The notes under the pieces: model-generated
The model's database searches: none
What the model was told of the DNA's origin: nothing
The model's input: only the letters and a program-made list of their open reading frames with translations
Part shown: positions 22,421 through 48,272 of the stretch, in pieces
Numbering within the stretch: position 1 is the stretch's first letter
How the letters are laid out: the number at the start of each line of letters is the position of its first letter
Assembly (NCBI GenBank): GCA_000004695.1
Contig: CM000151.3
Location: forward strand, 1,568,001 to 1,632,000
Source of the DNA: Dictyostelium discoideum
Lineage: Eukaryota
Reading direction: 5' to 3'
DNA length: 64,000 nt
Made by a program: the position numbers and the translations under genes

Positions 22421-22512
22421 ATGAATAATAATTTAAAAAAATTATTAAGTAAAATGGAAATTTATAATAATTTTAAAATTGAAGAGAAAGATCAAGAAAT
22501 TAAAATTAAAAA

Positions 22513-22543
<31 letters not shown>

Positions 22544-25500
22544 AAAAATAATAATGATGATGAATGGTTTTGGAATGTAATTCATAATAAATTTTTATTT
22601 AATAAAATAATTCAACATTTAAAAAATAATGATGGTAATGATGATGATTATGATGATTATGATGAAGATTATAAAGATAATGAAGATGCAGAACCAAAAG
22701 GTGAAAAATCAATTGAAGATATTAATTATTTAAATAATTTTAAAGATATTTCATCATTAGAATTAATAATTGAAAAGAAACAATGGAATATTTTAAAAGA
22801 TAAAATTAAAAATAATCAATTTATTAGAATGGAGAAATCATCATTAAATATTTTATATAGTATTTGTAAAGATAAAGAAATTTTTAAATCATTATATAAT
22901 AATTCATGTTTATCAATGGAAATTGTGGATCCAGTATTTTATTCTGCAAAAAATAATAATTTAATATCATTACAATTATTCATTGAAGAATTTAATTTAC
23001 CAATTTATCCATCAACTTTAGAATTTGCGATTATCAATTCATCATTAAAAACCATACAATTCCTAATAGAATCAATTTTAAATAGAAATTTATCAATTGA
23101 TAGCTCATTTAAAGAGAGATCTTTAATTTGTAGTTTTAAAAATTATAGTAATAATTTGAAATCAGATTCAGTAATTACAGAATATTTATTGGAAAATAAA
23201 GAATTACTATTAGCAAATTCAATTGATATTATTAAAATTCCAATTGAAAAATGTTTAAAATTAAAAAAATTAAAAACTAAACAATTGTTATTTAATTATG
23301 GTTTCATTGATTTTAATCATTCAATACCAATTTTAAAAGAATGGTTAATTACAAACTATAATGTATTGTCAATATTGGATTTATGCTTTTCAATTAATAT
23401 TTTATTAAATTGTGATAAGCAATGTGTTGATCTTAAGAATGCACCACAATTCTCAAAAGTGATAGAATCTATTAGAGAAAGGGTTGAACAAGGTCCAATT
23501 ACAGATGACGAACATTCAAATTTTAATTTACTATTAAAAGGACGTTTAATTCAGTTAATTAGAGTTGACGAATTATTTTTAAAATTTTTAAATGAATTTG
23601 GTTTTGAAAAAGGTGTTCATTCATTAGCTTATTGTCCAATGGTAATGGTTTATCAATATACTTTTCAATCATTTAATATTCATGGATTAACACATTTATC
23701 TCATACACAAACTGATGTTCCTCATCCTCAATCGAATCCACATTTTAAACCAAATATGTCAACTTTAACTGACCCAAAGAGAATATTAAATTTTATTAAA
23801 TTTTATTTCAGTTCACAAAATAAGGTTATTTATAATGGTTGGGAAGAGATATCAAAATTTTGTTTGTTAAATTGTAGTATTGAGATTTTAAATGAAATTA
23901 TCGCAATCGAAGGATACCCAATTAAATCATTTCTAATTCCAGATATACAATTTAAACAATTCTCAAAATATCAATGGTTTATTGAGAGTATTGTTGTACC
24001 ATTTGGTTTGAAGTTACATAAAATGGCAATGTACAATTCTTATTTTCAAACTAATCAAGTTTCAAAAGATTATTATTATAGAGAAATTGATGAAAAGGTA
24101 TTAATATCAATTGAAAAATGTAATGAAATTGATTTCATTGATTATTACAGAAACTATTTCCAATTGGGTAATGATAACGTTTCAAATATTAAATATAAGA
24201 AATTAATTGGTGGTAATGGATTCTTTACAATTATCAACTCAATTGAGTGTGCACGTTATTGTTGTGAAAAATTTAAAACTATTCCAAAAGATTTAATTTA
24301 TTATAATTTAATTGTAAAAACAATTTTAACATCAAATATAAATAAAATGAAATCTATAGACACCTATGATAATTGTTCATTAAATTATTTTAAAGGTTAT
24401 TTCAATTTAAATTGTGGTTCAATTGGTACTGAAAATATTATAAAATTATTCAATTATTTAAATTCATCAGGATTTAAATCATTTTCAAAAATATGTGGTC
24501 TATATTACTTATTATATAGTTTAATAAAATCATATAGTATATCATATGATAATAGTAATAATAATAATCGTCATCATGATAATAATAACAATAATTCATT
24601 TGATATAGTTTATAAGATTTTTTCAAATTTATCAATTAATCAATTTCCAAAATGTTTTATGGATTTATTTATAACATTATGTTTTTCAAAATATCAAAGA
24701 GATTTAGAATTGGCTAAATTAATAATTGAAAAATTGGATTTTGATAATGTTTTAACAGTTTATCAATTTACAGATTTAAAATTCAAATTTCATAAATATT
24801 TAATAGAACAAAGTTATAGTGTTGATGATAGAAGAGAAGATGAACAATATGATATCATTTTATCAATAATTCAAATACTATTTGAAAAGGTTTCAGATGA
24901 AAATCAAAAGAATTTTCATGCACTTTATCAACATTTATATAATATTGCATTATCTTGTAAAGTGACATCATTGGATAAAATCAAAGTTTTACATAATCTT
25001 TATAATTCAAAATCAATACCTTTAAAAATCGGATTCTATCATTCATTCTTTTATTTAGATATCAAAAATACAAAATTAGGTAGATATTATTTATTCATTA
25101 GGGTTGATGGTTTAGAGAATGATACATTCGAGCATGGTATGGGATATAATGGTGATATCATTCCTTATTTTTCATTAGATGTTGAATTATGTTTTGATTA
25201 CATTTGTAATAATTCATATAAGGATATATTCTATTTGTTAAGAACTGTAATTATGGTCCAACCATTACCAGGATATAATGGCAGTGATTATTTAAATGGT
25301 ACTAAAAAATGTACAATCAATTTAATTAGTACACGTGGTAAAGTAAATCCTTCAAATGAATATTCATATGATGATAAATCATTTTGTGATCAAAAACAAG
25401 AAGAGATTCTATACAGTTTAAATCAAGATATCGAATATTTATCAACATTTTCTCAATATAATTTAGTAATTAGATTATTAAAAGACTCTATGGAAGCTAG

Positions 25501-26059
25501 TGAAATCGATTCAGAAACTTTAAAAGACCGTACTAAATCGTTCTTAATTTGTGGTATCGATTGTAAATCGTTAAGGAAAATTATTAATCTTGGTATTAAA
25601 GGTTTGGATTTTGAATTATTGGAACAATCATTCTATGAATTACGTTTAGACTTAATCGAATGTATTATGAATAATTATAGTGACTCAATTTTAAAATCTG
25701 GTAAAAGATTAAAAAATGATAAACATTTCCTTTTTCAATCAAATCATTTAGATATCATTGGATTCATATTTGAAAATTATATTCAATTAATGCCAGAATT
25801 TGATTTAACTTGGTTTGAAATATCATTTGAAAATGGTTTAATAGAAATGTGTTTATTAATTTTAATGTTTTATCCACAACAACAAATCATTATAACAAAT
25901 GACCTTTTAGAAAAAACAATTCAAAACAAAAATATTAATATTGTTAAATATTTTTATAATAATTATCCATCATTTAAATATTTAAAATTAAATATTCAAT
26001 CACTAATTAAAAAATATTATTTTTTAGATTATAAATATTTTGATTGGATTTTAAATTAA
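22421..26059 (+). CDS. Large hypothetical protein (1212 aa), intronless, with an N/D-rich N-terminus and no domain I can recognise
   Basis: Single uninterrupted ORF. The codon usage is AT-rich and typical of the host. Confidence 0.7.
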
Positions 26060-28578: not shown

Positions 28579-29666
28579 TCAGTCAGTGAAACCTTTCACA
28601 ACAACTTTACCCATATTTTTATTTGCTTCCAAATATTCATGAGCCTCTTTTATTTCAGAAACATTGAAAACTTTATCAACAATTGGTTTTAATTCACCAG
28701 ATTCAAATAGGGTTAAATATCTCTTTGAAAATTGAGCAACTAAATCAGCTTTATAATCATTATCACGATTTCTTAATGTTGATCCTTTAATTGTTAATCT
28801 TTTACCTAAAATTGGTGTAATATCAGCTGCTGTATCTTTAATATGTGATCCTGATAAAAATCCCTAAAAAAATTAAAAAATATTAGTAAGTGATTTATTG
28901 ATTAATTAGTTAATTGGTTGATTAAAAGTAAGTAACTACCTACTTGAATAATCATAACGCCATCCATTGAAAGTGATTTTAAATTTTGGTTCCAATATTT
29001 AGCACCAACATAATCAAATACATTGTTTACACCTTTTTTGGAGGTGACATCATTGATTACGTCTAAAAAGTTTTCATTGGTTTTATAATTGACCGAATGG
29101 GTTGCACCTAATTTTTCAATAAACTTTGCTTTTTCATCAGAACCAACAGTGCCAATGATTTTTGTTGCACCATCAACTTTACAAAGTTGGATCAATGCTG
29201 TACCAACACCACTTGCAGCAGCATGGATTAAAACGCTATTACCCGATTTGAAATTTGCTAATGGGTGTAATGCTTGGAATGCAGTTAACCAGGCTTCTGG
29301 AATCGCCGATGCCGATTCAAAAGTTAAGTGAGATGGCATGTGGAATGCTTGATTCGATGCGATTGTGCAGAACTCGCCATATGCTCCACCACCGACGAGC
29401 CCAAATACTTTATCACCGATTTTGAATCTTTTATCCTGTTTATCAGCCTCCACAACCACGCCTGACATTTCCAATCCTAAAATATCACTATCACCTGGTG
29501 GTGGTGGGTATCTACCCATTCTTTGTAAAATATCTGCTCTATTTAATGCAAAACTTTTAACATGAACTAAAATTTCATTATTCTTTGGTGTTGGTTTTGG
29601 TGCTGTTCCAATAATTAAATTTTCAATACCTCCAAATTGTTTAACTAAAATTGATCTCATTGACAT
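28579..29666 (-). CDS. MDR-family NADPH:quinone oxidoreductase (PIG3/TP53I3 or zeta-crystallin-like). Exons (minus strand) 28944..29666 and 28579..28863
   Basis: Motifs LNRADILQRMGRYPPPPG, ILGLE, AIPEAWLTAFQALH, VLIHAAASGVGTALIQL, and after splicing (donor gtaggt, acceptor ttttag) ...VMIIQ-GFLSGSHIKD...STLRNRDNDYK...EIKEAHEYLEANKNMGKVVV. These match the PIG3 family almost block for block. Confidence 0.8.
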
Positions 29667-29919
29667 TTTCTTTTTTTTTTTTTTATTATTATTAAATTAT
29701 TATTAAATTATTATTAATGTGTTTTGTTTTTTTTTTTTTTTTTTTATATGAAAAGAAAAAATTAAAAAAAAATAATGGAAAAATAAATAAAAAAAAAAAA
29801 AAACAATAAACACCACCACAATGATGTTACATTTTTTTTTTTTATTTTTTTTATTTTTTTTTTATTTTTTTTTATTTTTTTATTTTTTTTTTTAATTTTT
29901 GTTTTTTAAATAAAAAAAA

Positions 29920-29990
29920 AAAAAAAAAGCTTCTGAAGGCATTTCTATTTTTAAACAAAAATTAAAAAAGCCTTCAGAAGCTTTTTTTTT
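29920..29990. repeat. Perfect hairpin. Arms of about 21 bp ('aaaaaaaagcttctgaaggc' / 'gccttcagaagcttttttttt') with a 28-nt loop
   Basis: Seen directly in the sequence. It is a GC-containing island in a poly-A/T desert. It sits between the 3' end of the deaminase gene (30330) and the start of the quinone oxidoreductase gene (29666). Confidence 0.85.
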
Positions 29991-30091
29991 TATTGATTAT
30001 GAAATCAAAAAGCAAAAAAAAAAAAAAAAAAAAGTTAAATAATAATTATCACATTGATTTTGATTGATGCTCTAAAACTAAAATTAAATCC

Positions 30092-30122
<31 letters not shown>

Positions 30123-30329
30123 AAAAATAAAAATAAAAATAAAAATAGATATTTTCACCCTGGGCTCATATTTATTTTTTATTTGTTATTTTAATTTTTT
30201 ATTTTTTTTTTTTTTGAACCTAAAACACCATCTTTATTTTTATTTTTTTTTTTTTATATTTTTTTTTTTTTTATATACATAATGAAATAAATAAATAAAT
30301 AAATTTACAACGAAATTTTAATTTTGTGA

Positions 30330-31367
30330 TTAAAAATCAGAACTATCTGAAAAAATTCCATTTACTGGGCAATCTCTAGTCCATCCAGCTTGACAAAATG
30401 GTGTGGTTGAAAAAACGCTACCAGTACCACATACAGATGGAATTAATAAATCAGTTTGTGATTCTAAAACTCCACCTATTAAAACTGCATTATGATTAAT
30501 ACCATAACCTAATCTGAAAATTCTATCAGCATCCATTGGTAATTGAGTGAAACAACGCTCACAATACATATTTGAAATAAATGATCCAAAAATAACTTTT
30601 TCAAATTTAGTCCATAATAAAGCTGCTGAACACCTAAAAAAATAAAAAATATATTAATAACACTATAATTTAAAATTAAAATTAGTTATAATTATCATTG
30701 TTGAATAACTTACATTGGACATGGTTCACCTGTTGTGTACATGTAATAATCTTCCCATGTTTCTTGTTGGTATAATTGAGTACAATTAAGAATTGCTCTG
30801 ATTTCACCATGGAGGCTATAATAAAATAAAAAAATGAATTAATACAATTGATTTTTTTTTTTTTTTTTTTAAAAAATATATTTACATTCTTGAACCTTCT
30901 CCAGTATTAGCAGCTGTACACATTAAAGTTCCATTTTTATGTACAATTGCTGCACCAAATTTAGAATTATGTTCAATAGCTTTATCAAGTGCACTATTAA
31001 ATTTTTTTTTTTTTTTTTTTTTTTAAAGATATAAGTATGTTTTTTTTACAAAGAAAAAATATAATAATTTAACATACATTCTCATATATTTTTCATGGAA
31101 TTGCTTTTCAATTGATGATAAATCATTAGCATAAATAATACCATTCTAAAAATAATTTTTAAATTAACAATTATTAGTTATTTTTTTTTTTAAAACTTTT
31201 TTTTATTATTTTTTTACACATACATAAGCATTTTCAGGATCTACAGGTGGGTTATCGTAATATGGGGATTCTGGGCATTCTTCAACTTCACTACTTGTAC
31301 TTTGACTAATAGTTTCAAAAGTAAACAAAGTAATTATTAAAATAATAACAATAAATATCTTATTCAT
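30330..31367 (-). CDS. Secreted cytidine/guanine-deaminase-fold (CDA superfamily, GuaD/TadA-like) zinc deaminase of 241 aa. Exons (minus strand) 31224..31367, 31078..31145, 30886..30993, 30714..30815, 30330..30633
   Basis: Signal peptide MNKIFIVIILIITLFTFETISQS. The spliced product ...KFGAAIVHKNGTLMCTAANTGEGSRI-LHGEIRAILNC...YTTGEPCPM-CSAALLWTKFEKVIFGS carries the H-x-E...PCxxC zinc-binding signature. All four introns have GTATGT/GTAAAT/GTAAGT donors and AG acceptors. The summed exon length is 726 nt, a multiple of 3. Confidence 0.65.
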
Positions 31368-32481
31368 TTTTTTTTTTAATTATTTATTTAATTTTATTTT
31401 ATTTTATTTTATATTGATTTGATTAACTATTATAATATTAAATTTATTTATTTTTATTATATATGTATATCTTAATTATTAGATTTTGTTTGATGGTAAT
31501 TAATGAAATTTTATAAAAAAAAAAATACTATTTATATTATTTTTTTAATAATTTAAAATTTTTTTAAAAAAAAAAAAAAACGATAAAATTATTTAAAATA
31601 AAACTATTTTATAATAATCTATTATTATTTTTTTAAATGGGCTAATTTAAGGTTTTGTTTGAGCATTACAATGATATCATTATAGCTTCTTTTATTTGAT
31701 TGGTTGTTTTAGGTATATCGTTTAATTTAAACCTTAAATCGCATTTTGTTTTAAAGACTACGTGGTTTTTTGATCCTATTTATGGCGGTTTTTATTTTAG
31801 CGTTGCATGTTCCAATTAAAAAAACTTTGAAAATCAAAATGTAAAAAATTAAAAAAAAATAAAATTAAAAATAACCAATCAAAATTTCAAAGGGTTTTTT
31901 TTTTAGCGTTTTTTATTTTTAAATTTGATTTTATAATAATCTCTCCAAATTATGATAAAAACGAAAAAAAAAAAAAATAAAAAAAAAAACTTTTTGAAAA
32001 TAAAAAAAAAATATAAAAAAAACAATGCAAAGATAATAACAAAAAAAAAAATATTAAAAAAAAAAATATTAAAAAAAAAAAAATATTAAAAAAAAAATTT
32101 TTTTTTATTATCTATTTTATCTATTATTAATGAAAATAATTAAAAAAAAAATAAATTATTTTTATTTTTCAATTTTGTAAAAAAAAAAAAAAAATTGTTT
32201 TCATACCATCAGAATCTATAATCTTAAACAATTCAGTTTATTCTAAAAAAAGAAAAAATAATTTATTTTTTATTTTTTATTTTTTATTTATATTAAAAAA
32301 AAAAAAACGGTTTAGACACCCCAGTCAATTGATGGCAAACCAAAATTCTAAAAATGTTCACTTTCTATCCAATCAACCATTTTAAAATAAAAAAATCTTT
32401 GAATTTTTCGTTTTTTGTAAAAATTGACATCTAATCTGAAGTAAAGGCCAATGGAATTCATTCAAACGATAAAACCTTTTG

Positions 32482-32516
<35 letters not shown>

Positions 32517-32591
32517 AAATTTGCCATATTTTTTTGCAAATTAACATTATGATGTTTTAAAAAAAAAAATGAAGAATCCTTTCTGTTTTTT

Positions 32592-32622
<31 letters not shown>

Positions 32623-32727
32623 TTTGCTAAAAATAATCAAGTAAGGTCCTAGGGGTTTAATAATTTTTTCATATTTTTATTTATATATTTTTTTTGTATT
32701 AAAAAAAAAATAAAAAAAAAAAATAAA

Positions 32728-32873
32728 ATGAAAATTCTATTATATATTGCAATAATTTTATCTTTTTTTAGTTTAATTACTATTTCAAGTGAATGTAAAA
32801 TAGCTGTACTTTTATCAGGATGTAAGTAATGGAAAAAAAAAAAGAATAAAAATAGTAAATAATTTCAAAATTT

Positions 32874-32932
<59 letters not shown>

Positions 32933-35439
32933 AAATACAAATAATTTTAAAAAGCCCCAAATGATCTTGGATATAATTATTTAATGAATGAAGCAAGAGT
33001 TAAAGCCGAGAGTGAATTAAAATTAGATTTTTCAATATATTACGAAAATTTAGAAGAGTCAATGGAGGAAGCTGAAAAAGCATTTCAAGATGCACTTCAT
33101 AAAGGTGCAAATTTAATAGTTGTTGGATCATTTGTTCATGTTGGGTTGGGTTTAAAATATGCTGCACTTACAAAAGATCAAGATATTTATTGGATTATCC
33201 GTGGTAACAAAAGACCAAATCCAGATCTTCCTCATGTTGTAATTTTAAATTTTAATTCTTTTGAATTACACTATTTACTTGGTTATTTCTCAGGATTAAT
33301 GACTAAAACCGGTATAGTTGGTTTTGTTGCACCAGGTCCAGATGTTAATACAATTTCAACTGATAATAGGTAATTATTTTTAATTTTTTTAATTTTTTTT
33401 TAATTTTTTTTCTAATCCTTTTTTTCCAAGCTTTTATTTAGGGGCAAAGTATGCACGTCCAAATATTACCTTTTTGAATGTTTATGTTCAATCCTGGTAT
33501 AATCCAAACGGTAAATTTTTTTTTAATTTTTTTTTATTTTTTTTTATTTTTTATTTTTTATTTTTTTTGGTCCAAAACTTTTTTAAACTATAAAAAATTT
33601 TTTGTTGGTTCAATTGGTTAAAAAAAAAAGAATGTAGAGTCAATTTATTAATATATTTATAAATATTTAAATATAGTTTCATATAGTGCAGCAAAAATGT
33701 TAATTAAAAATGGAGCAGATTTAATTGGTATGTCACAAGATGATATGTCATGTCAAAAAGCAATGATGGATAGTGGATTAATTGGAATTGGTGCAACTGG
33801 ATATCCAACACATCTTTTATTTGGTGGAAATGTTGGTGTTTCTTATATTACCAATTGGACCAACCTTTATGTGAAGTATGCTCAACATGTTTTAAATGAT
33901 GATTGGCCAGATTATAGTTCTTACTTTACCAATTTATCAAGAGAAGATTCAATTTTCATTGATGATTATAGTTATAAAGTACCAATTGATATTCAAAATT
34001 TGGTTAATGATGAAATCCAAAGGTTAAAGAATACATCATATATTCCATACCGTTCAGATCCTTATTTGGCTCAATTGGGTATTCCATTCGATAGTAAAGG
34101 TCTATTGGTTGAAGATCAATTTAGAGCAAATAAAAAGCTATTAAAAGGTGATAGTATTTCAAAAGTTATTGATTTTGGTCAATATTCAATACCGATTGAA
34201 TTTATTGATTATCCAAATTCATTAAAATATGGTGTAACAATTGTATCTGGTGTTTGTATTTTTATATGTTTAGTTTGTATGACATTGGTAGTTGTATTTA
34301 AAAAGGCAAGAGTTATTAAATCGTCAAGTCCAGCATTTTTATTATTAATTTTATTGGGATGTTGTATTATATTTGCTGCATGTATATTATTTGCACAATC
34401 ACCAACCAATCAAACATGTTCAGCTAGAATTTGGTTATTAAGTTTAGGTTATACATTGTTTTTGGGTAATTTGTTAGTAAAGAATTGGAGAATTTGGTTA
34501 TTATTTGATAATCCAAAATTAAAGAAACGTGCAATTACCAATTGGAAATTATATCCATGGGTATTTGCTATATTGGCAATCGATGTAATGATATTGGCTA
34601 TTTGGCAAGGTTTGGGTAATATCAATGCTGAGTCTAGAATTGGCTATGATTCATTAACTCAATATCAATATAAAAATGTTTGTTCAAGTGATGATCAAGG
34701 TTCAATTGCTTTATATCTTTTATTGGTATTTCATGGTTTGGTTTTATTGGTTGCATGTTTTATTTCTTTTAAAATTAAAGTTGTAGATATTGAAGAATTT
34801 AATGAATCAAAACCAATTACAACCAGTGTTTACATTATAACATTTTGTTTATTCATTGTTATACCATTAATGGTTTCACCACAATCATTAACTAGTCAAA
34901 CTACAATCATTTGTGTTTGTGCTATCGTTACAACTTTAATTAGTATGTTGTTATTATTTGGTAGTAAATTCTATAAAATGGCAACTCAAGGCTTAGCAAT
35001 TAATGAAACTTTTGCAACTAGTACAAAATCATCAAGTAAATCTTCAAAATCAAGTTATGGTAAAGATAATCCAAATCCAAATGCTATCAATTTCGGTGAA
35101 GATGATACATCTGATGAAACTTCTGAAGAAAAGCATAAATCTCCAAAACAAAAATCTGTAAATTTTAGTAATAAATCAAATTCTCATTTAGCAGTTTTTA
35201 CAAGTGATGAAGAAACAAGTAAAACAAGTAAATTAAGCATTGATTTTGAAAATTCAAGTAAAGATATTAGTATTGATCAATTACAACAACAAAAACAACA
35301 ACCAATTAACACAAATGGGGATTTAGAAAATAAATCAAATGATAAAATAGATGATGATAATGATAATTCAAGTGTTTTATCTAAAAGAATATCAAATCAA
35401 CAAAATGGTGAAACAGAAATTGATTCCAATAATGTTTAA
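32728..35439 (+). CDS. Family-3 (GABA-B/metabotropic-glutamate-like, Grl-type) GPCR. Signal peptide, BMP/PnrA-type periplasmic-binding-like extracellular domain, 7TM, S/N-rich tail. Exons 32728..32821, 32955..33369, 33431..33510, 33677..35439
   Basis: MKILLYIAIILSFFSLITISSECKIAVLLSG followed by gtaagt. The binding domain reads ...NEARVKAESELKL...IVGFVAPGPDVNTIS...GAKYARPNITFLNVYVQSWYNPN. Seven hydrophobic helices follow (VTIVSGVCIFICLV..., AFLLLILLGCCIIFAAC..., IWLLSLGYTLFLG..., etc.). The total exon length of 2352 nt is divisible by 3. The first acceptor (aaaaag) and the third (ccaag) are the weakest calls. Confidence 0.6.
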
Positions 35440-35899: not shown

Positions 35900-36950
35900 T
35901 ATTCATCATATTCTTGTCTTGTGACATACAGTTGTAGGAAAGTTGAGAGTGAAGCTAAATAGATCCATCAATCCATACAGAATTTTTACGTTCTGGTGGT
36001 GAAACGATGTTAATGTTCGTGTTAGAAGGTGTTAAAGCAGTTAATTCTTTATTCAAACGATCAGCAAAACCTGGTAGCATGGTTGTACCACCTGACAATA
36101 AAATGCAACCATACAAATCATTTTGAATATCAACATCACACCTCTTGATTGAATTATAAGTTGATTGGTGAATACCAGCTGATCCCATACCTAATAATGA
36201 TGGTTTGAAGAGGGCTTCTGGACAATGGAAACGTTCATTTCCATCGTAATGACTTGACCATCTGGTAATTCGTATGATGTTGAGTTGGCAGCAGTTTTCA
36301 CTTCAGTTTCAAAATCTAAAGCAACGTAGGCGATTTCTCTTTGATATCTCTGACAATTTCTCTTTCGGGCAGTTGTGGAGAATGAGTTACCACGTTCGCT
36401 CAACATTTTCATCATGTAGTCAGTGAGATCATTACCAGCTAAATCTAAATGTAAAATGGAATTTGTCATAGCTTTACCTTCATAAATTGGTACAGTGTGG
36501 GAAACACCACCACCTGAATCAATAACGATACCAGTGGTACGACCAGAAGCGTATAATGATAAGATGGCTTGAATGGAAACATACATGGCTGGAATGCCAT
36601 AACATTCAAACATATATTGAGCCATTTTCTCTGTGTTGACTTTTGGATTAAATGGAGGTTCAGTTAAGAAAACTGGGTGTTGATCTGAAGAGACACAAAG
36701 TTGATCGTTGAAAGCATGATTCCAAAATTTTTTCCATATTTTCCCAGTTAATAATAATAACTTTTTCAATTGGATATTCGAGTCGTTCCAGATCTCTCTT
36801 TGATTGAGCATCATTACCTACATATGAATCAACTTGACCTATTTTCGGTTTGGAAAAACCAACAACTGATGGGAAAGCATGTGGTGATTCATCTCCAGAA
36901 AAACCGACTTTAATAATAGAAGAACCATTATCAATAACTATGGTTAACAC
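35900..36950 (-). pseudogene. Actin pseudogene, divergent and with frameshifts
   Basis: Three minus-strand ORFs in different frames (36660..36950, 36191..36814, 35955..36188) each translate to actin-like sequence (VIDNGSSIIKVGF..., ...[24 protein letters not shown]..., ...[22 protein letters not shown]...). The 3' end keeps a degraded copy of the actin stop-codon region. Confidence 0.75.
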
Positions 36951-37367: not shown

Positions 37368-37934
37368 TCACCTTTTTCTTTGGTATTGATTTCTTTTTTT
37401 TTCAGACCAGAAGTTTAGGCTTTGGCGATAAAATCCAATGAACAGTTCTTTGTTTTTAATTAGAGAATTATCGATGGTGTCAATAATCTCATCAAGGAAG
37501 GACCCATGGGAATTACGTTCTCGGTAGAAATGGTTCTTGATATAGCCAAAGAAACGCTCAATGGGATTCAACTCTGGAGAATAGGAAGGAAGAAATATCA
37601 ATTGAACCGAATATTGATTAAACAATTCAAATAGTGCATTTAAAGCTTCGATACCACCGTGAATTGGAGCATTGTCCATTACCAATAATGAACCAGGCTT
37701 GCAAAATCCACTTTCCAAAAGTTCTCTAACATATTGAAAGAAGTCTTCAGTATTATTGGTTTTATCACGGATTTTATACAAACAATCATCCAAACTGATG
37801 GTGAAAAACCCATTGTAGGTCTCAGAAATGCTGGTGCTATTGGTAACATAAACCGGCTCTCCAATCGGTCCAACAGCTTTAGATCTCCTTAATTCTAATA
37901 AAAAACCTTATTAGTTTTAATTATTTATTTTGTA

Positions 37935-37996
<62 letters not shown>

Positions 37997-38724
37997 TAAT
38001 TACCTTATAATGTTAATAGTGGAATTCAGAATGGATGGAAAGAAAGACAATTATTTAATTAAAAATATTTTTTAAAAAAAAAAAAAAAAAAATTAGTATA
38101 AATATTTATATTCAATCTAAAATAATAAAATATAATACCTCTAGAAGAAAATGAGCATTCATCTAAAAAATAAATTTTTTTCCAATCAGTATTGTAAATT
38201 ATTGTATTAAAATAAAATAATTTTAATAAATTTTCAATTTTGTATTTATTTTCCTAAAAAAAAAAAAAAAAAATTAACAAATAGTTAGTTATTTAATATA
38301 TTAAAACTTTTTTACTTACTTGTTTATAGGTTGGAGAGTGGTAATTCCATTTCAATTCTTTGAATATTGAACATATCCTCGATTTGTTGACCTTTTTATA
38401 AAAAATACTATTTTGATCTGAGTTAATTTCTTGGGCGATCTCCCTCATTGTGAGATTAGGTCGGACATTAACCATTGCTACCACAGTTGCCACCAAGAGT
38501 TCATACTGTTCTGTAGTAAATGTACTTGGAGATCTGGAGCCGCCATGGGATTGTCTAATTCTATTATCTTTGATATCTCTACGGTAATAATTGAGTTGAT
38601 TTCTGGTCAAACCATTTTCACGAGCAGCTCTACTTATATTACCGATTCTAACCCCATATTCTAATGCATTGTATATTCTCTCAGTATGCTCAATTAAGTG
38701 AGTTAAACTTCTTTTAGGTTTCAT
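37368..38724 (-). mobile_element. Tc1/mariner-superfamily DNA transposon transposase gene (possibly the Dictyostelium DDT family) with one intron. Exons (minus strand) 38316..38724 and 37368..37894
   Basis: The N-terminal exon is a paired/Tc1-type HTH (…GNISRAARENGLTRNQLNYYRR…). The C-terminal exon carries the DDE_3 signatures VMDNAPIHGG and LPSYSPELNPIERFFGY. The donor is 'gtaaaa' and the acceptor 'tttattag'; this pairing was chosen by phase. The first catalytic D is not evident (SISET), so the copy may be inactive. No TIRs were identified. Confidence 0.55.
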
Positions 38725-38728
38725 TATA

Positions 38729-38990
38729 TTGTTATTACTATTATTACTACTATATTGCTATTGCTATCACTATTGTTACTATTATTACTACTATATTGCT
38801 ATTACTATTATTACTATTACTACTATATTTCTATTGCTATTACTGTTATTACTATTATTACAATTATTACAATTATTACAATTATTACTACTATATTTCT
38901 ATTGCTATTACTATTACCATTACTACTATATAGCTATTGCTATTAATATTTCTATTTCTATTTCTATTACAATTATAAATATAATTAATT
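38729..38990. repeat. Complex (TTA/CTA/TTG)-rich minisatellite directly upstream of the transposase start
   Basis: 'attactattattactactatattgctattgctat...' units are repeated irregularly. The LLLL/YYYY ORFs over this region in the ORF track are artefacts. Confidence 0.8.
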
Positions 38991-39204
38991 ATATTATTAT
39001 TTTGGTTTTATTAATTATGTTTTTTTAATTGTTTTTATTATTATAAACTGCAAGTGGTTTTTTTATTTAAAATAAAAAAATGATCATTTTAACCAAAAAT
39101 GTAGATGTGATGGTTTATTATTATAAAAACTATGGCCAATTGTATTTCATTTTATTTATAGTTGGTTAAAATAATGAGTGAATTTTTTTTTTTTAACTGT
39201 GAAA

Positions 39205-40981: not shown

Positions 40982-42102
40982 TTAATTGTATTTATTATTA
41001 TATTAGAATGATTAAAAAAAAAAAAAAAAATTAGTTTTTAAACTTTTTTTTTTTTTAATAATTTTTATAAAAAAAAAAATAAAAAATAAAAAATTGGGTT
41101 TTGGAAGATTTTTTTTTGGGGTTGGGTTTTGTTTTTTTTTTTTTGAAATTGGCTTTGTATTTTTTTTTTTTTTTTCATGAAAACCTTTTTAAAAATAATT
41201 AATAGTTTTGTTAAATTTCTTTTTTTTTTTTTTGGTTGAATTAAATTAGCAACAATATCATAATCATCGTCACAATCACAACCAAAAATACATTATACTA
41301 CTTTTCTTGGTTGCCACAGATACAATAATAAACAGTATTATTCACAAATCACTATCGATTACATAATAATAATCAAAATAATCATGAATCTTCTTCACAC
41401 AAAGATATGGGCCAACCAAAATCAACAGCAAAATCTACCGCAACAATAACATGTATTGATAGCTTTGTTTAAAGATGAGAATATGTTAAGCACATTATGG
41501 TTAGTTTGGAGAATGATCGTTGAAGAGTTATACAATTTAATAAAGAGAAATTTATTATCACCAAATCATTAAAAGAGGGTACTATTGGAAAATGCCATCA
41601 CTATTGTATTTGAAAATCATGAAACTATTGCTTTAATTGGTAAAGAATGTTGTTCCACTAGGAATACTTTTATCTATTCCAATTTCAATACTTTTGTTTC
41701 ACATCAACTGTACTAGATATAGATATTCAACAGAAACAACTACTTCAACAAATTCAACAAGTTTACTATTTTTTAACTCAGTTGACAGAAATAGTATTGG
41801 AGTGGTATAAGTAGGAAAATTGTAGAATAGTAATAGTAGAGGTTATGGCACAAGTAGAAAAAATAGTAGAGAAATTGGTTAGAATCCACTACCGTCTACT
41901 GCCATGGAACCAATACAAACAACTCAATAATCAAATTTCTATTTTAAAAATGAAGTTTCAGATATTTTGCTAAATGATAAATATCAAAAATGAAAGTTTA
42001 GAGAGTAATATAGTAGTCTCAAGTAGAAAACCATGCATTCCCTAAATTAGAGGTAAAAAGAAATGCATATTGGTGGTTAAAAAAAATTTTTTTCATCAAA
42101 AA

Positions 42103-42172
42103 GCCCGTGTCGTATAGTGGTTATTATATCTGTCTTGTACTATGTGCACAAAGCGATAACAGAGGGTCCTCA
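42103..42172 (+). tRNA. 5' portion of a tRNA gene (anticodon TGT, Thr-type reading) including an 18-nt intron, truncated within the T stem by a retroelement insertion
   Basis: Acceptor GCCCGTG. T8. D stem GTAT/TTAT with the canonical D loop AGTGGTTA. Anticodon stem TCTGT/ACAGA. Loop c-t-TGT-a with the intron 'ctatgtgcacaaagcgat' after position 37. Variable loop GGGTC. Then CTCA-, the start of the T stem. Confidence 0.55.
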
Positions 42173-42338
42173 AACCGCACCGCGATCAAGAGGATACAAG
42201 ATACACGTGAAAAGTAATTCATCCTTTTCTATCCTTAATCTCGGTCAATTTTAACCAATCTTTCAAAAAAAATCACCAATCCACCACGATCTACAGATCT
42301 AATTTACCAAATCGCCGATTCAAAGGAATCCCATCGAG

Positions 42339-43592
42339 ATGAATTCCTACGCAGACGCGGCTAAAATGGCCAACCCCTCCACCCATATGGACGAGGCATC
42401 AGAGAACTTCATTAAGGAATTCTCCACAAAAACAGCAGAGATAAAGGAGACCTACCCCAAATTATCAATAGGCCTCAAAGACATCTCCAAATACTGCGAG
42501 ACCATATTGAACATGACTGCTCTCTCAACCTACGAGAAAAACAACGGATTCTACCCAATTACACTCGAATTCCCCAAAATGGATCTCATGGGGTTAGAAG
42601 AAATGAGAAAAACACTCTCAAACTACGATATCCCAATCGACAAGATATACATAGGCAAAGGAACTAGAAAAACGATCCACCTGATGATTAAAAACGAACA
42701 ATCTCTCCTAAATATCATTAGAGATAGAAGCAAATTGGGAACCTTCATCACCTCCAGTAGAGACTACCACGTCCTCACAGGAAGAGTAAGAATTCCAAGA
42801 GAAAAGGCAGGAATAGTGGATGCCCTCATCAAAACTGCCTTTGCAGAAGAAATACCCTATGCAATATACCATACTATATACTCCACCGACCACCTCCTAG
42901 TATTCGGTCTAATAGAATGCAAAATAGGCGATCAAATGAAATCTGGCCAACACAATACAGAAATCGCCAACTTTACCATCAGAACGGCCACCAAAACCTA
43001 CTCCTCACAAAAGAAAAATAAGAAAGTAGAGTCAAACAACACGGAAGAACCATTAGAAGATGAGATGACAGATGATCCTCCCAACATCCAAAACAGGATA
43101 GCAATCAAATCCTCTCAACCAAAACCACAACAACAAACAAACAACCCAGCAAACAATAAGTCTGATAAACAATCAACCCAAGAGAAAAAAGCCCAATCAA
43201 AAAAGTCCTCTCAACCTCTTCCCCCCAAAAACCAAGCAGAATCTCAATCTGTCAAACCCACCACAACCACTACCACAACATCCAACGCCATCCAAAAAGA
43301 CAATGCCAACAAAACGAGCACTAACATCCATTCATCCTCGGAAAACAGAGAGAAGACACCAAACATCCCTCCATCACATAAACGCAAGAACGAGGAAATC
43401 CACTCAAACAACGAGGTCACCCAACTCTCACCAACAATAAACAGAAGCAACCCTTACATCCCATCCACCCCTAAGACACCTGTCAATAAAGAAAGGAAAG
43501 GAATCATTGAGAGCTTCATAGAGAGTATCTACCCTTCACCATCCAAACCGCAGCTAAACGACTCCCAAGAGGAGATCGATATCATCTCATAA
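42339..43592 (+). CDS. Retrotransposon ORF1 (417 aa), basic with a P/T/Q/N-rich C-terminal half
   Basis: First long ORF of the element. It ends in a TAA that overlaps the ORF2 ATG. Confidence 0.8.
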   Translation: MNSYADAAKMANPSTHMDEASENFIKEFSTKTAEIKETYPKLSIGLKDISKYCETILNMTALSTYEKNNGFYPITLEFPKMDLMGLEEMRKTLSNYDIPIDKIYIGKGTRKTIHLMIKNEQSLLNIIRDRSKLGTFITSSRDYHVLTGRVRIPREKAGIVDALIKTAFAEEIPYAIYHTIYSTDHLLVFGLIECKIGDQMKSGQHNTEIANFTIRTATKTYSSQKKNKKVESNNTEEPLEDEMTDDPPNIQNRIAIKSSQPKPQQQTNNPANNKSDKQSTQEKKAQSKKSSQPLPPKNQAESQSVKPTTTTTTTSNAIQKDNANKTSTNIHSSSENREKTPNIPPSHKRKNEEIHSNNEVTQLSPTINRSNPYIPSTPKTPVNKERKGIIESFIESIYPSPSKPQLNDSQEEIDIIS

Positions 43593-46500
43593 TGGTAGTA
43601 ATCAAAATCAACCAATGGAATGTCAGAGGTTGGGGCACTGACACCTCCTTCAAAAACAAAACAGACTTTATCAAATCCCAATCCCCCCCAAACTCATTGG
43701 CACTAACCATAGTCAATGAACTCAACGCCGACGCAACACAAGCACACCAGCTATTTCCTGGCTCCATCATTAGCGCAACCAACAGAGGCAACGGAATAGG
43801 AATACTAAACCACAACAACCAAAACATAAAACTCTCACCAATATTCATAATAGAAGGTAGACTAATAATATCAGACATTCTAATAAAAGATACCACAACG
43901 AGAATCTTGGCCATATACGCCCCGGCCCAACCTGATAAAAGAAAAACACTAGCTTCAACACTAAACAAACACTTCAACAACCAATACCACAACCTAACGT
44001 CTAACCCTAAAAAAAACATCGACATCATAGCAGGCGACTTCAATTGTTTAGACTTCAATGACAATCACACATCAAATGATGACCAAGGCAACTTGACAAC
44101 ACAATCCCCAGATGAGATGGCCACAGTAATCGAAGCCATCAGAATTTCAAATAACCTAATGGATATGGACCAACTAAATAAAAGACCCACCTTCTCAAGA
44201 ACGATACACAACACAAACAATAACCTCACAAGAATCTTGGAAAGGAGACTAGACAGAATATACCTTAACAATAGCATAATCAACTACAGCCAATTATACT
44301 TAAGGAACCTAATCCCCCCAAAAATTAATGACATACCTCTATCAGATCACAACTTCCTATCAACCACCTTCACTCTACCCAACATACAGATGAACAAGCG
44401 CAGATGGAGATTAAAAAAATCCTCAATCCTCTCAAGCATAATGCTTAAGAAAATAGACTTCCTACTTAACGATTATTCAAGGGAGCTGTCATCCAACCAT
44501 AACTCTATTTCCTTCTCTCAACTCAACAGCTTACTAAACAAAATAAAACAACTATACACAGAATTTCAAAAACAAAATGACTACAACAATAAGGCAAACA
44601 TCAAAAATCTAATCTCCCTACTAGAGACAGAATTTAAAGACCAAGCCTTCGCAACCCTTTCAGCAATAAATGAATCTAAAAAAAGAGAAGAACAACTTAA
44701 ACAAGAATTGAACAACTATTGCGAAGAAACCTCACTCAAGTACATCTCCGCGAGAATCAAGAAAAGACACAATGATTTCACCATCAACGCAGTAAAAGAT
44801 GCACAAGGTAGAACAATCAACAAACAGGAATTGATCGAAGAAGAATACGTAAAATATTACTCAAATCTTTATGACTACAAAGAAGATGACCCACCATCTC
44901 ATTATGAAATGTTGGAAAATTGGACAGTGACCAGGGACTCAACATGGGACAACCTTGAAAATGAATTCACATCACAAGAGATCCTAGAAGTAATAAAACA
45001 ATTGAACCCACACAAATCTCCAGGCCCAGATGGAATTCCAAACTTATTCTACATAACACACAAAGAAAAACTAGCTCCAATACTGGCCTCAGCATTCAAC
45101 GACACTCTAAGAAATCCTCATCTAATTAGCAAAAATTACAAAGAAGGCCTCATTATCACGATACCTAAAAAGGGAGACCCCGAACTAATCAAAAACAGAA
45201 GACCAATTACACTGGCTAACTGTATATATAAAATCCACTCAAAACTAATAAACAATAGAATAATCCCAATACTAACGAAAGTGATCAACCACAATCAAAA
45301 AGGTTTCGTACCAGGCAGATTCATTATAGATAATATCATATCAATGAACGAATTAATCAACTATTGTAATGATAAAAGAATTAACGGAATAATTACACTA
45401 TATGATTTCGAAAAAGCTTTTGACTCGATCTCACACGGTTCAATACTCAGATCACTACAACACATCAACATTCCAACCAATATAATCAACCTGATAATGA
45501 ATCTACTCACCAAATCTGAAGCAAGAATTGAAATTAATGGTAGAACTACTATACCCTTTGAGATCAAAAGAGGAGTTAAACAAGGAGATCCACTATCACC
45601 CACCCTGTTCGTCCTTGTAATAGAGGCTTTAGCTAGAAAAATTTTACAAGATGACCGAATTACTGGCCTTCCTCTAAACAACAGCAACCACAGAGAGAAA
45701 TTCCAAAGCTTTGCAGACGACTCGGCTTCAATGGTCCCAGACTCTCAACAACTTGAATTAGTACTACAACACTTCAATTCATTTTGCAAAGCCACTTCCT
45801 CAAAACTAAACATCGACAAATCTTCATCAATTCTTATAGGCAACCCAGACAATACCAACCAAAGAATTCCAATATCTACAAATCCAGAAAGATACTTGGG
45901 ATACTTCTTCACAGGCAAAGGGATAACAAGAAAAATGCCAGAAATATTAAACACAATAAGATCATCCTTAGTACTATGGAAAACCACTGACTCAACAATC
46001 AAAACCAAAACCAACATCCTCAAAGCATTCGCACTCTCTAAATTAACCTACTATTCATATGTAGAGAACTTTAAGGAAGAGGAATTAAACCAAATCAATA
46101 AATTAGTCGAATGGTTTTTATCGGCACCAAACAACAAAAATGCTAGTGGATTTCAAGTTATTAATTTAATGAGAACCAAAAGAGCAAGATACCCACTAAA
46201 AGTAGGGGGCTGGAACATTTGGAATATAGAATTGAGACAACTGGCGCAGAAACTTTGGATCATAAACCAGTTCATCCTAGCACTAGAAACCAAACAAACA
46301 AACTCATCTCATCACAAAAGCTGGGAATATCAGATCCAAAAAAACAAATTCACATCCAGATACCTAAAAGAAAACTTAGACGAATGGAACAAAATAAGAA
46401 TAAAAAAAGCAATCTTCAACAATAATCTCACATCCATAAAAAACGAAAATGGACAACCACTTTCACTGGCAGAATGGTATACCACAATTCAAGACCAAAA

Positions 46501-47296: not shown

Positions 47297-47393
47297 TTAA
47301 AATAACCCTTCAGCTTAAATGATAAGCCTTTAAATAAATATTAAATAAAACTCGTATTAACACAGATGGACATATATCAATCTTGTTAATCCA

Positions 47394-47432
<39 letters not shown>

Positions 47433-47437
<5 letters not shown>

Positions 47438-47465
47438 GTCCTCAGTTCGATTCTGAGCTCGGGCA
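47433..47465 (+). tRNA. 3' portion of the same tRNA: target-site duplication copy, T arm, acceptor 3' strand and discriminator A, followed by a T6 Pol III terminator
   Basis: agagggtc-CTCAG-TTCGATT-CTGAG-CTCGGGC-A then tttttt. Joined with 42103-42172 (minus one target-site duplication copy) it gives 91 nt, which is a 73-nt tRNA plus the 18-nt intron. Confidence 0.6.
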
Positions 47466-47494
47466 TTTTTTCCTCCTAGACAGGATGGATCAAT

Positions 47495-47505
47495 GGTTCG
47501 AATCT
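47495..47505 (+). promoter_or_regulatory. Extra B box (exB) downstream of the tRNA gene
   Basis: 'ggttcgaatct' is a 10/11 match to the B-box consensus GGTTCGANTCC. It lies about 30 nt 3' of the tRNA terminator. Established knowledge: many D. discoideum tRNA genes carry a downstream exB box. Confidence 0.5.
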
Positions 47506-47666
47506 GCAAAAATTAATAATAAAACTTATTTTTTTTTATATTAGGTTTTTAAACTGGTTGTGTAGGTTGTGAGTTTTTATTTTTATTTTTTTATATATTT
47601 TTTTTTTAGCAAATTAAATTGTTTTTTTGGATAGATTCAAACTAAAAAAAATTTTATTTTTTTATT

Positions 47667-48272
47667 TTAATTATTACAGTAATAGATTTCTGGTGTATTT
47701 TGGCTACACTCTGGGAATTCTAGAGCATGAGAGAATATAGCGTTTGTGCAGGAATCGGTACTAAAATAATAATTCTCATCATATGAAGTCTCATTACAAC
47801 TTGTAGTTTTAATAGAGCCAACATCAGTATAGGTGCATATATTTAAACCCAAGGAAGCTACTTGAATAATATCATCCTTCCAAGCAGGGTTAGAATCAGG
47901 GCATTGGCCATTTGTTAAATATTCAACTAGTGAATTAGTTCCAAGATCATAATCTTCTGTACAACTATAAATAACATTATTTGATGTTCCAAAATCATTG
48001 GTACATTTATTTGCTTCAAGATTTATAGATTCAGATCCACCTTGACAATTTGATCCATAATATTGGGTTCTTGTTATATTATTATTTGCAGCATCACATG
48101 TATACATAAGGCTTGTTCCTTCATTACATAAATTGGTTGTTCTATAATGAACAAGGGTCATTCCATTTTTACAAGAATAATCATTTATTTGATAGTATTC
48201 AACTTTAAGATATCCTGAATAAATACTTTTAAATAATAATGATAAAAATATAAATTGAAATAAAATTTTCAT
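47667..48272 (-). CDS. Secreted cysteine-rich protein (201 aa), function unknown
   Basis: Signal peptide MKILFQFIFLSLLFKSIYS. It has 14 Cys and is rich in N/T/S/Y. The ORF is complete. Confidence 0.6.
   Translation of the reverse strand: MKILFQFIFLSLLFKSIYSGYLKVEYYQINDYSCKNGMTLVHYRTTNLCNEGTSLMYTCDAANNNITRTQYYGSNCQGGSESINLEANKCTNDFGTSNNVIYSCTEDYDLGTNSLVEYLTNGQCPDSNPAWKDDIIQVASLGLNICTYTDVGSIKTTSCNETSYDENYYFSTDSCTNAIFSHALEFPECSQNTPEIYYCNN

Follow-up and report, generated by a model that had tools for sequence, protein, structure and literature searches.

A predicted secreted zinc deaminase of Dictyostelium discoideum encoded head to head with the receptor gene grlJ

Why would Dictyostelium export a zinc deaminase, and on which compound would such an enzyme act? 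The question is raised by a gene on the minus strand at positions 30330–31367 of a 64,000-nucleotide stretch of D. discoideum chromosome 2 (assembly GCA_000004695.1, contig CM000151.3, positions 1,568,001 to 1,632,000 of the forward strand), referred to here as the window, whose G+C content is about 22%. An earlier note, made from the sequence alone, had described a five-exon gene for a deaminase of the cytidine deaminase (CDA) fold with a signal peptide, and had suggested a nucleobase-scavenging or antimicrobial role for it in bacterivory. The gene is DDB_G0272442, and it lies head to head with grlJ, which encodes an orphan receptor. Sequence and fold comparison show its predicted product to be a catalytically intact zinc deaminase of the TadA/GSDA/FCY1/GuaD group. 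The explanation that we favour, with about as much confidence as doubt, is that this protein is a deaminase secreted in late development, which acts on a small heterocycle and thereby modifies the ligand of GrlJ-type receptors.

The gene and its deaminase fold

The coding sequence is assembled from five minus-strand exons (31367–31224, 31145–31078, 30993–30886, 30815–30714 and 30633–30330), joined in a single frame across introns that are all GT..AG. The resulting protein of 241 residues is identical, residue for residue, to XP_645257.1 (D. discoideum AX4, chromosome 2, UniProt Q559S7), which is annotated merely as a hypothetical CMP/dCMP-type deaminase domain protein. DDB_G0272442 is confirmed as a genuine, annotated yet uncharacterised gene of D. 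discoideum. A literature search found no paper that names it or its paralogues in the main text, and a tblastn search of the window found no second deaminase copy. The five-exon structure of the earlier note was borne out, with clean splicing and an exact database match, once the donor of exon 1 had been corrected; every peptide that it quoted (MNKIF..., KFGAAIVHKNGTLMCTAANTGEGSRI/LHGEIRAILNC and TGEPCPMCSAAL) is present in the spliced product. The corrected donor is GTATGT, so that exon 1 ends at 31224 rather than at 31218, 6 nt upstream. The longer model of 243 residues, with exon 1 running to 31218 and an extra 'VC', was rejected on the grounds that annotated orthologues lack these two residues and that DNA comparison supports the upstream donor. 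GTATGT follows ...GCN TAT in D. discoideum, D. firmibasis and D. dimigraforme, and the latter two have no second GT beyond it; no copy of the version with 'VC' was found in a collection of 15 billion proteins. All four intron positions are conserved among the three species, and the ratio of nonsynonymous to synonymous substitution rates (dN/dS) of their orthologues is 0.10–0.11. DDB_G0272442 is therefore protein-coding and under purifying selection.

Exon 1 (31224–31367, 144 nt, Met1–Tyr48) opens with the ATG at 31367 and is followed by the donor GTATGT at 31223. It encodes the predicted signal peptide (residues 1 to about 23, roughly 31299–31367) and an N-terminal 'CPxSP' segment with Cys31. 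Residue conservation was counted over 28 dictyostelid relatives and, separately, over 132 other (non-dictyostelid) relatives; Cys31 is present in 27 of the former. Exon 2 (31078–31145, 68 nt), bounded by an AG acceptor and a GT donor and in frame, carries the start of deaminase helix 1, while exon 3 (30886–30993, 108 nt) carries strands 1–2, the N-glycosylation sequon Asn91-Gly-Thr, Asn100 and Cys96, the last found in all 28 dictyostelid members. In exon 4 (30714–30815, 102 nt) lie His109-Gly-Glu111 (30803–30811), the sequon Asn117-Cys-Thr and Pro138-Cys139-Pro-Met (30714–30724), the first part of the PCxxC zinc motif. The second zinc cysteine, Cys142 (30628–30630), comes from exon 5 (30330–30633, 304 nt including the stop), in which it is encoded after the final base of Met141 at 30633. 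The same exon encodes the remainder of the deaminase fold and a Cys-rich C-terminal part with the family-specific Cys165, Cys168, Cys209, Cys221 and Cys229.

The profile search that the earlier note had proposed upheld its call of a CDA-fold zinc deaminase with an HxE/PCxxC core. Pfam PF00383 (dCMP_cyt_deam_1) matches residues 65–159 of the 243-residue model with an E-value of 1.7e-19 and 70.1 bits (cut-off 25), and all ten relatives tested pass the same profile; MafB19-deam (38.7 bits, cut-off 27) and Bd3614-deam match more weakly over the same stretch. Both halves of the core are intact (His109-Gly-Glu111 and Pro138-Cys139-Pro-Met-Cys142), and His109, Glu111, Cys139 and Cys142 are invariant in the dictyostelid set (28/28) and in 131–132 of the 132 other relatives. 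The structure was modelled with AlphaFold2 on the 91%-identical D. firmibasis orthologue P0001, standing in for the window protein. This model has a predicted local distance difference test (pLDDT) score of 83.9, mostly at least 86 in the core blocks (about residues 50–200), and it shows the three-layer α/β/α deaminase fold. By sequence, the closest solved relatives are Bacillus subtilis TadA (4e-10), yeast cytosine deaminase and B. subtilis guanine deaminase; overall they are TadA, guanosine deaminase, yeast cytosine deaminase and the CDA-fold guanine deaminases, in agreement with the GuaD/TadA-like layout noted earlier.

Membership in this group does not make the protein a TadA. Its score against the NCBIfam equivalog NF008113 is 29.8 bits, with a cut-off of 150, and its predicted signal peptide, sequons, cysteines and mature isoelectric point (pI) of 4.67 do not fit the compartment and basic RNA-binding surface of TadA/Tad2. 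Nor is the APOBEC/AID clade the one to which it stands closest: in the structure comparison APOBEC3G, APOBEC3H and AID score 6.0–6.9, SsdA 5.1 and DddB 4.1, and no APOBEC-type Pfam family matches any of the 11 members tested. The features of polymorphic toxins of the MafB19, SsdA and DddA/DddB kind, namely a toxin-clade domain together with delivery domains and/or an immunity gene, were likewise not found.

Probable secretory routing and the exported branch

The N-terminus of the window protein consists of MNK, followed by 14 uncharged hydrophobic residues (mean Kyte–Doolittle value 3.27) and by small residues at –3/–1 within positions 21–25. By a rule-based heuristic, the secretion signal of the earlier note is thus of secretory type, and the same succession of n-region, hydrophobic h-region and small –3/–1 residues is common to every full-length dictyostelid relative despite sequence divergence. 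These relatives number about 30 and come from Dictyostelium, Polysphondylium, Heterostelium, Cavenderia, Acytostelium, Tieghemostelium and Synstelium. Further features of extracellular proteins are conserved within the family. The sequon N-C-[ST] at position 117 occurs in all 28 dictyostelid members and N-x-[ST] at position 91 in 23 of them, compared with 2 of the 132 other relatives; Cys165, Cys168, Cys209 and Cys221 are present in 28/28, compared with at most 3/132. Under the corrected exon 1 donor, the cysteines that do not belong to the zinc site number eight, an even count. The product of DDB_G0272442 very likely enters the secretory pathway, as far as such sequence features can tell.

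Analysis of the C-terminal tail found neither a hydrophobic stretch nor HDEL in the window protein, and a soluble secreted form is therefore the simplest reading. Release from the cell is inferred on this basis. A literature search found no secretome paper that names DDB_G0272442 and yielded only papers on T6SS that have no bearing on it. The mature chain would have a mass of 24.3 kDa (about 49 kDa as a dimer), a pI of 4.67 and a net charge of about –13. Eight relatives end in small residues and a hydrophobic tail resembling, by the same kind of heuristic, the signal for a glycosylphosphatidylinositol (GPI) anchor, which implies an extracellular face. These are P0064–P0067, P0069, P0070, P0073 and P0076, from Tieghemostelium, Synstelium, Acytostelium, Cavenderia and Heterostelium; their tails comprise 16–29 hydrophobic residues after the small ones, and they would be cell-surface deaminases. 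No such tail was present in the D. discoideum members examined, all of which are soluble.

The origin of the family was approached by a profile search of 1.84 billion representative proteins. All matches with a traceable source among the 19 below 1e-30 are dictyostelid, and the next tier contains many short prokaryote-like proteins with the sequence YTTGEPCPMC. The closest non-dictyostelid relatives accordingly look bacterial, as the earlier note had thought possible. Its view that a secretion signal is unusual on this fold has to be given up: 63 of the 132 nearest non-dictyostelid relatives have N-termini of the Sec or twin-arginine translocation (TAT) type, by a heuristic that visibly overlooks some exported relatives, the dictyostelid members with signal peptides have to be added, and secreted deaminases, dictyostelid ones included, were described by Krishnan et al. 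in 2018 (PMC5889660). Because of the 63 bacterial-type leaders and of a few eukaryote-like relatives, export appears, on the sequence evidence, to be a recurrent feature of the TTGEPCPMC deaminase sub-clade. The dictyostelid family plausibly descends from a bacterial deaminase that was already exported by the Sec or TAT route.

Several exported bacterial relatives (P0026, P0030, P0078–P0081, P0085 and others, at loci L001–L009) have clear TAT or Sec signals and are automatically labelled 'tRNA(Arg) A34 adenosine deaminase TadA'. The label is probably a systematic misannotation, because these proteins are exported or periplasmic. The gene neighbourhoods of two of them, P0030 and P0015, gave no functional hint, and the M20 peptidase gene found there was dropped as a pointer to folate hydrolysis, since it would have been over-reading. 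A few metagenomic relatives look eukaryotic. One of these, P0089 (364 residues), combines a signal peptide and the deaminase domain with a C-terminal WSC carbohydrate-binding domain (E = 8e-19), which suggests secreted eukaryotic, possibly fungal, versions beyond the dictyostelids.

Within the dictyostelids the family is present in all major groups and has undergone a lineage-specific expansion with tandem copies in Tieghemostelium lacteum. There, KYQ90026, KYQ90027 and KYQ90028 bear consecutive numbers on one contig and form one 90%-identity cluster, while KYQ89053 lies elsewhere. Some members are catalytically dead: in P0074 and P0075 (D. discoideum strains) and P0077 (D. purpureum), H-S-E is kept and PCxxC is replaced by P-D-S-L-S-S or P-D-P-L-A-A, and one of the three carries in addition a long C-terminal extension of low complexity. 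As pseudo-enzymes, such proteins may still bind a ligand.

The divergent pair with grlJ

The gene on the other side of the deaminase start codon, grlJ (DDB_G0272150), occupies 32728–35439 of the plus strand. Its GT..AG model has four exons (32728–32821, 32955–33369, 33431–33510 and 33677–35439) and encodes a class-C G protein-coupled receptor (GPCR) of 783 residues, with a signal peptide, a Bmp-type extracellular ligand-binding domain and a Pfam 7tm_3 domain. The receptor is 68% identical to GrlB and falls into the GrlA/B/F/J clade. It is taken to be GrlJ because its length, chromosome and clade membership match the entry for GrlJ (chromosome 2, 783 residues; Table 1 of PMC1885808). The folate receptor fAR1/GrlL was rejected as an identity, since it is encoded on chromosome 3 and has 708 residues. 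GrlJ is an orphan receptor whose loss leads to precocious development and to defective or abnormal spores (PMC1885808).

The two start codons (31367 on the minus strand and 32728 on the plus strand) are separated by 1360 bp (31368–32727), presumed to be a bidirectional promoter region common to both genes. This region is collinear with its D. firmibasis counterpart over about 1.1 kb at about 68% identity; the figure is taken from the top blastn match, the only usable one in a search run without a low-complexity filter, in which A/T-rich matches dominate. The head-to-head arrangement of a Bmp+7tm_3 receptor gene with a deaminase gene recurs in D. firmibasis and D. dimigraforme, where the GrlJ orthologues are 90–92% identical. 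In D. purpureum, two tandem receptors adjoin the deaminase P0007 in the same divergent pairing, and in Cavenderia fasciculata, across the deepest split of the group, the receptor P0230 adjoins the deaminase P0012 in the same way. One EukProt species has receptor and deaminase as consecutively numbered gene models (gene455 and gene456). A second, paralogous pair exists in D. firmibasis, where a receptor 65% identical to GrlJ lies beside the orthologue of DDB_G0282171; the Grl next to that orthologue is probably GrlF (chromosome 3, same clade). The remaining flanking genes differ at every paired locus, and therefore only the receptor/deaminase pair itself has been retained. Rough neighbour-joining trees of receptors and deaminases are compatible with one ancestral pair that was later duplicated.

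The pair is also linked by expression. In the cell-type RNA sequencing of Kin et al. 2018 (PMC6198379, supplementary file 5), both genes belong to the cup-enriched set. DDB_G0272442 reaches 17.96 transcripts per million (TPM) in cup, 17.9 in prestalk, 5.76 in spore, 2.0 in prespore, 1.78 in stalk and 0.41 in vegetative cells; the values for grlJ are 34.6 in cup, 13.3 in spore, 1.94 in prestalk, 1.10 in stalk, 0.33 in vegetative and 0 in prespore cells. The deaminase gene, which has a value of 2.2 at hr00, is co-regulated with grlJ and essentially off in feeding cells. The Gene Ontology (GO) annotation in the same source files it under 'RNA modification'. Exposure to B. subtilis raises its expression by 3.10 log2 units, about 8.5-fold (Lamrabet et al. 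2020, PMC7078664, Table S2); in the same comparison the paralogue DDB_G0272030 is down by 3.14, and the paralogue DDB_G0282171 is down by 2.91 in one comparison of that study.

Some indication of the compound concerned comes from the receptor. The GrlJ extracellular domain is matched best by AtzT (6pi5, E = 7e-21), whose published Kd is 110 nM for guanine and 2.5 µM for adenine, and by 3s99, a Brucella lipoprotein whose deposited structure contains adenine (PMC6834077). The stacking pair Tyr45/Trp194 of AtzT and its Ser97 are kept in GrlJ as Tyr38, Trp192 and Ser90, and are kept across the Grl clade, while the residues that hydrogen-bond guanine, Glu165, Asn218 and Asn220, are replaced by Asn, Ser and Asp. 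Because the aromatic sandwich is kept and the three polar contacts are replaced, a planar heteroaromatic ligand other than guanine itself is suggested for GrlJ.

The following course of events is proposed. The signal peptide would direct the nascent chain into the endoplasmic reticulum, where it is probably N-glycosylated and disulfide-bonded, and, having neither membrane anchor nor retention signal, the protein would leave the cell as a soluble and acidic enzyme with subunits of about 24 kDa. By analogy with its clade, His109, Cys139 and Cys142 should hold the zinc ion and Glu111 should act as the proton shuttle, so that an exocyclic amino group on a heteroaromatic ring would be exchanged for oxygen and ammonia released. 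The substrate would be a small planar amino-heterocycle, such as a purine base, a nucleoside or a pterin-like compound. A small molecule is preferred over tRNA or DNA because of the pI of 4.67 and the net charge of about –13, and because an exported enzyme is kept away from cytosolic tRNA. The enzyme would act mainly late in development, in prestalk and cup cells, where its gene and grlJ may be co-transcribed from the shared divergent promoter. The conserved and co-expressed pairing suggests a receptor together with a signal-modifying enzyme. Since the Venus-flytrap domain of GrlJ appears to derive from purine-base-binding proteins, the compound on which the enzyme acts is inferred to be the ligand of GrlJ-type receptors or a relative of it, which the enzyme could inactivate, generate or shape into a gradient, much as PdsA does for cAMP. 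In a wider form of this proposal, which we put forward tentatively and consider doubtful, the Grl(A/B/F/J)/deaminase pair is an ancient module of receptor and ligand-modifying enzyme: GrlJ would sense a planar amino-heterocycle and DDB_G0272442 would deaminate it, so that the signal is ended or sharpened, and the vegetatively expressed paralogues, together with the relatives in other species that have GPI-signal-like tails, would be the uncloned secreted and cell-surface folate or pterin deaminases behind self-generated folate gradients.

Several points weigh against a secreted, ligand-modifying enzyme. The signal-peptide and GPI calls come from a rule-set heuristic and from family conservation rather than from SignalP or NetGPI, a signal peptide would also be compatible with delivery to lysosomes or endosomes, and the final 20 or so residues of the P0001 model have a pLDDT below 50. 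Expression of DDB_G0272442 is low overall, at no more than 18 TPM. That the neighbour is GrlJ is concluded from its length, chromosome and clade, and not from an exact protein match: the protein search with the window receptor returned GrlB-type matches at 67–68%, whereas GrlJ itself and the orthologues of about 90% identity (L010 and L011) were not returned, having evidently been overlooked by the word-index search or being missing from its index. No Grl gene adjoins the deaminases P0005, P0006 and P0009 (P. violaceum), and conserved adjacency with co-expression does not prove a common ligand. Besides the replaced guanine contacts, there is the entry for GrlB in the gene table of PMC6198379, in which this close paralogue of GrlJ appears as a γ-aminobutyric acid (GABA) receptor; GABA is not plausible as a substrate of the CDA fold.

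What else could the enzyme be? That it is not secreted at all, the hydrophobic N-terminus being a gene-model artefact or a signal for other targeting on an ordinary intracellular tRNA or nucleotide deaminase, is scarcely credible. Automated sources do call the bacterial relatives TadA, TadA is the top match in sequence and fold, and the GO filing under 'RNA modification' points the same way. Yet three species share the N-terminal exon with its donor, the signal-peptide architecture is held in all full-length members while their sequences diverge, the sequons and eight extra cysteines are conserved and family-specific, and the protein is acidic and far below the TadA equivalog cut-off. If the protein is exported, it might serve nutrition. 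We consider it unlikely that DDB_G0272442 is an endo-lysosomal or extracellular salvage enzyme, deaminating guanine, cytosine or nucleosides from prey or dying cells, beside which the adjacent grlJ would be a neutral relic. Lysosomal routing also uses a signal peptide, the closest characterised enzymes (yCD, GuaD, GSDA and Msd) are salvage or catabolic, and B. subtilis induces the gene. In late development, moreover, stalk and cup cells recycle their own cellular material, a setting that would suit salvage. The near-zero expression in feeding cells (0.41 TPM, compared with 17.96 in cup and 17.9 in prestalk) does not suit it, and it lends no support to the nucleobase scavenging or antimicrobial role in bacterivory that the earlier note had suggested. 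Co-enrichment with grlJ in cup cells also argues against salvage, and a pair kept from Cavenderia to Dictyostelium and in a paralogous copy, while all other neighbours changed, is hard to explain as a neutral relic.

A toxin-like nucleic-acid deaminase, secreted against bacteria, viruses or parasites as Krishnan et al. proposed for dictyostelid AID/APOBEC-like deaminases (AADs), is in our judgement highly improbable for this locus. The predicted secretion, the lineage-specific expansion with tandem copies, the catalytically dead paralogues, the above-threshold MafB19-deam match and the induction by B. subtilis would all be in keeping with it, and the signal peptide and four-cysteine C-terminal domain described in PMC5889660 resemble those of the family. 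The mature protein is acidic, however, with a pI unsuited to nucleic-acid binding, and a dN/dS of about 0.1 shows neither diversifying selection nor the signature of an arms race; no delivery or translocation domain and, in 11 members, no APOBEC-type Pfam match was found, and expression is lowest in feeding cells. The induction by B. subtilis favours the link to bacterivory drawn earlier, whereas vegetative near-silence, acidic pI and purifying selection speak against it.

Improbable as well is the proposal that DDB_G0272442 is the classical extracellular folate or pterin deaminase that inactivates folate and creates self-generated gradients. That activity is secreted as well as cell-surface bound and was described as 'yet to be cloned' (PMC8616412, PMC4794234), and no later paper reporting the gene was found in the literature search. 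Both soluble proteins and proteins with a GPI-signal-like tail occur in the deaminase family, which is represented in every major dictyostelid group; it is expanded in T. lacteum, for which pterin deaminase activity is listed (as Dictyostelium lacteum) in a review (PMC13197243). In pterin and folate the 2-amino-4-oxo ring resembles guanine, and guanine and guanosine deaminases are among the closest folds. For this particular gene the fit is poor, mainly because of the expression and GrlJ data: it is near-silent in vegetative cells (0.41 TPM; 2.2 at hr00), when folate chemotaxis operates, and vegetative or early-starving production, as expected of the folate deaminase, was seen neither in the cell-type nor in the hr00 value of DDB_G0272442, a result that concerns this gene and not its paralogues. 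The reported size of about 40,000 (PMC4794234) compares with 24.3 kDa for the mature subunit before glycans, and the known bacterial pterin deaminases have the amidohydrolase fold (PMC13197243). Better candidates are the paralogues expressed in vegetative cells, DDB_G0272030, DDB_G0282171 and Q8T1Z7. The family as a whole is a reasonable candidate source of the uncloned folate or pterin deaminases, chiefly through these vegetative paralogues and through GPI-tailed members in other species.

Surroundings and known systems

The rest of the window contains some further features. The spacer that separates the 3' end of the deaminase gene from an ADH-type gene holds a near-perfect hairpin at 29911–29998 (AAAAAAGCTTCTGAAGGC ... 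GCCTTCAGAAGCTTTTTT). An Rfam scan of 29000–33000 gave only sub-threshold, microRNA-like matches to it, at best 33.6 bits compared with a gathering threshold of 90; probably any hairpin would score as weakly. ARAGORN found no tRNAs in the window. A single uninterrupted open reading frame (ORF) of 1212 residues runs over 22421–26059 of the plus strand, with no Pfam match at E ≤ 0.001. Beyond grlJ, the minus strand at 35955–36950 carries actin-like sequence spread over three ORFs that overlap or adjoin one another and differ in frame, the middle one matching Pfam Actin with E = 7e-42. A pseudogene of actin, or a copy with frameshifts, is the probable explanation; the syntenic position in D. firmibasis (L010, 575–1705) holds an intact actin gene of 376 residues. 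At 37368–38724, also on the minus strand, a Tc1/mariner-type DNA transposon seems to have left a remnant, made up of part of a DDE_3 superfamily endonuclease (E = 5e-15) and an adjoining 143-residue ORF with no Pfam match. Just past it lies a highly repetitive low-complexity stretch (about 38730–39030). From 42001 to 48000, the G+C content is unusually high for this genome (0.32–0.41), with a GC skew down to –0.31 and an AT skew up to +0.36.

The locus is of interest in that two open problems of Dictyostelium biology, the folate deaminase gene and the ligand of GrlJ, can be tied to named genes. As a biochemical entity folate deaminase dates from 1981, and in 2021 it was still described as 'yet to be cloned' (PMC8616412); this activity underlies self-generated folate gradients and maze-solving chemotaxis. 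A secreted, sometimes GPI-signal-bearing, guanine-deaminase-like family would supply four D. discoideum candidate genes for it. As to GrlJ, the pairing with a deaminase gene, the co-enrichment in cup cells and the descent of its flytrap domain from purine-base-binding proteins point to a purine-like ligand and an enzyme that modifies it. More generally, the TadA/GuaD-type fold appears to have an overlooked exported branch, found in bacteria, where its members go under the mistaken name TadA, and in a eukaryotic lineage, which probably received it from bacteria.

Among known systems, the nearest group to the window protein is that of TadA/Tad2, GSDA, FCY1 and GuaD (PF00383; PDB 2b3j, 7cph, 7dbf, 1p6o/8i3o, 1wkq/1tiy, 2g84 and 5xkq). 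To their common architecture it adds a predicted eukaryotic signal peptide and an N-terminal CPxSP extension, two conserved N-glycosylation sequons on a mature form that is acidic, and a Cys-rich C-terminal elaboration of about 80 residues (YCxxC...C...C...C), and in its equivalog score it remains far from TadA itself. The exported bacterial 'TTGEPCPMC' deaminases (e.g., P0015, P0026, P0030 and P0078–P0085) are its closest non-dictyostelid relatives, with profile E-values of 1e-31 to 1e-17. They share with it the YTTGEPCPMC motif, an invariant Gln171 and the GGVLE..D C-terminal helix, whereas they lack Cys31 and the four cysteines of the C-terminal region, mostly lack the sequons, and are 140–220 residues long. 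The genes for P0030 and P0015 are monocistronic and have as their neighbours either secE-nusG-rplK or genes for LysE and an M20 peptidase.

The comparison with the SNADs and the secreted AADs of dictyosteliids (PMC5889660) is less straightforward. The secreted deaminases that Krishnan et al. describe from dictyostelids combine a signal peptide with a C-terminal four-cysteine domain; their paper lists D. fasciculatum, T. lacteum and Acytostelium only and not D. discoideum. The window family likewise has a signal peptide, a four-cysteine C-terminal domain and a lineage-specific expansion; the likeness rests on the published description, and these features are descriptive rather than synapomorphies of a clade. 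Unlike the AID/APOBEC-like proteins, the window family is not APOBEC-like by Pfam or by structure, and the mutagenesis of nucleic acids in defence that was proposed for the former fits poorly with its acidic pI, its purifying selection and its developmental expression.

On the receptor side, the closest parallel is with the purine-binding periplasmic proteins of the AtzT/Bmp type, which the GrlJ domain matches at E-values of about 1e-20, but in GrlJ this domain is fused to a seven-transmembrane (7TM) domain. For the pair as a whole, the comparison is with PdsA, the secreted and cell-surface cAMP phosphodiesterase, and the cAR receptors, and with folate deaminase. The analogy is functional only, the link in the window being a divergent gene pair and its transcription. 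The common logic would be that of a secreted or cell-surface enzyme which shapes gradients by destroying the chemoattractant ligand of a GPCR (PMC8616412, PMC4794234).

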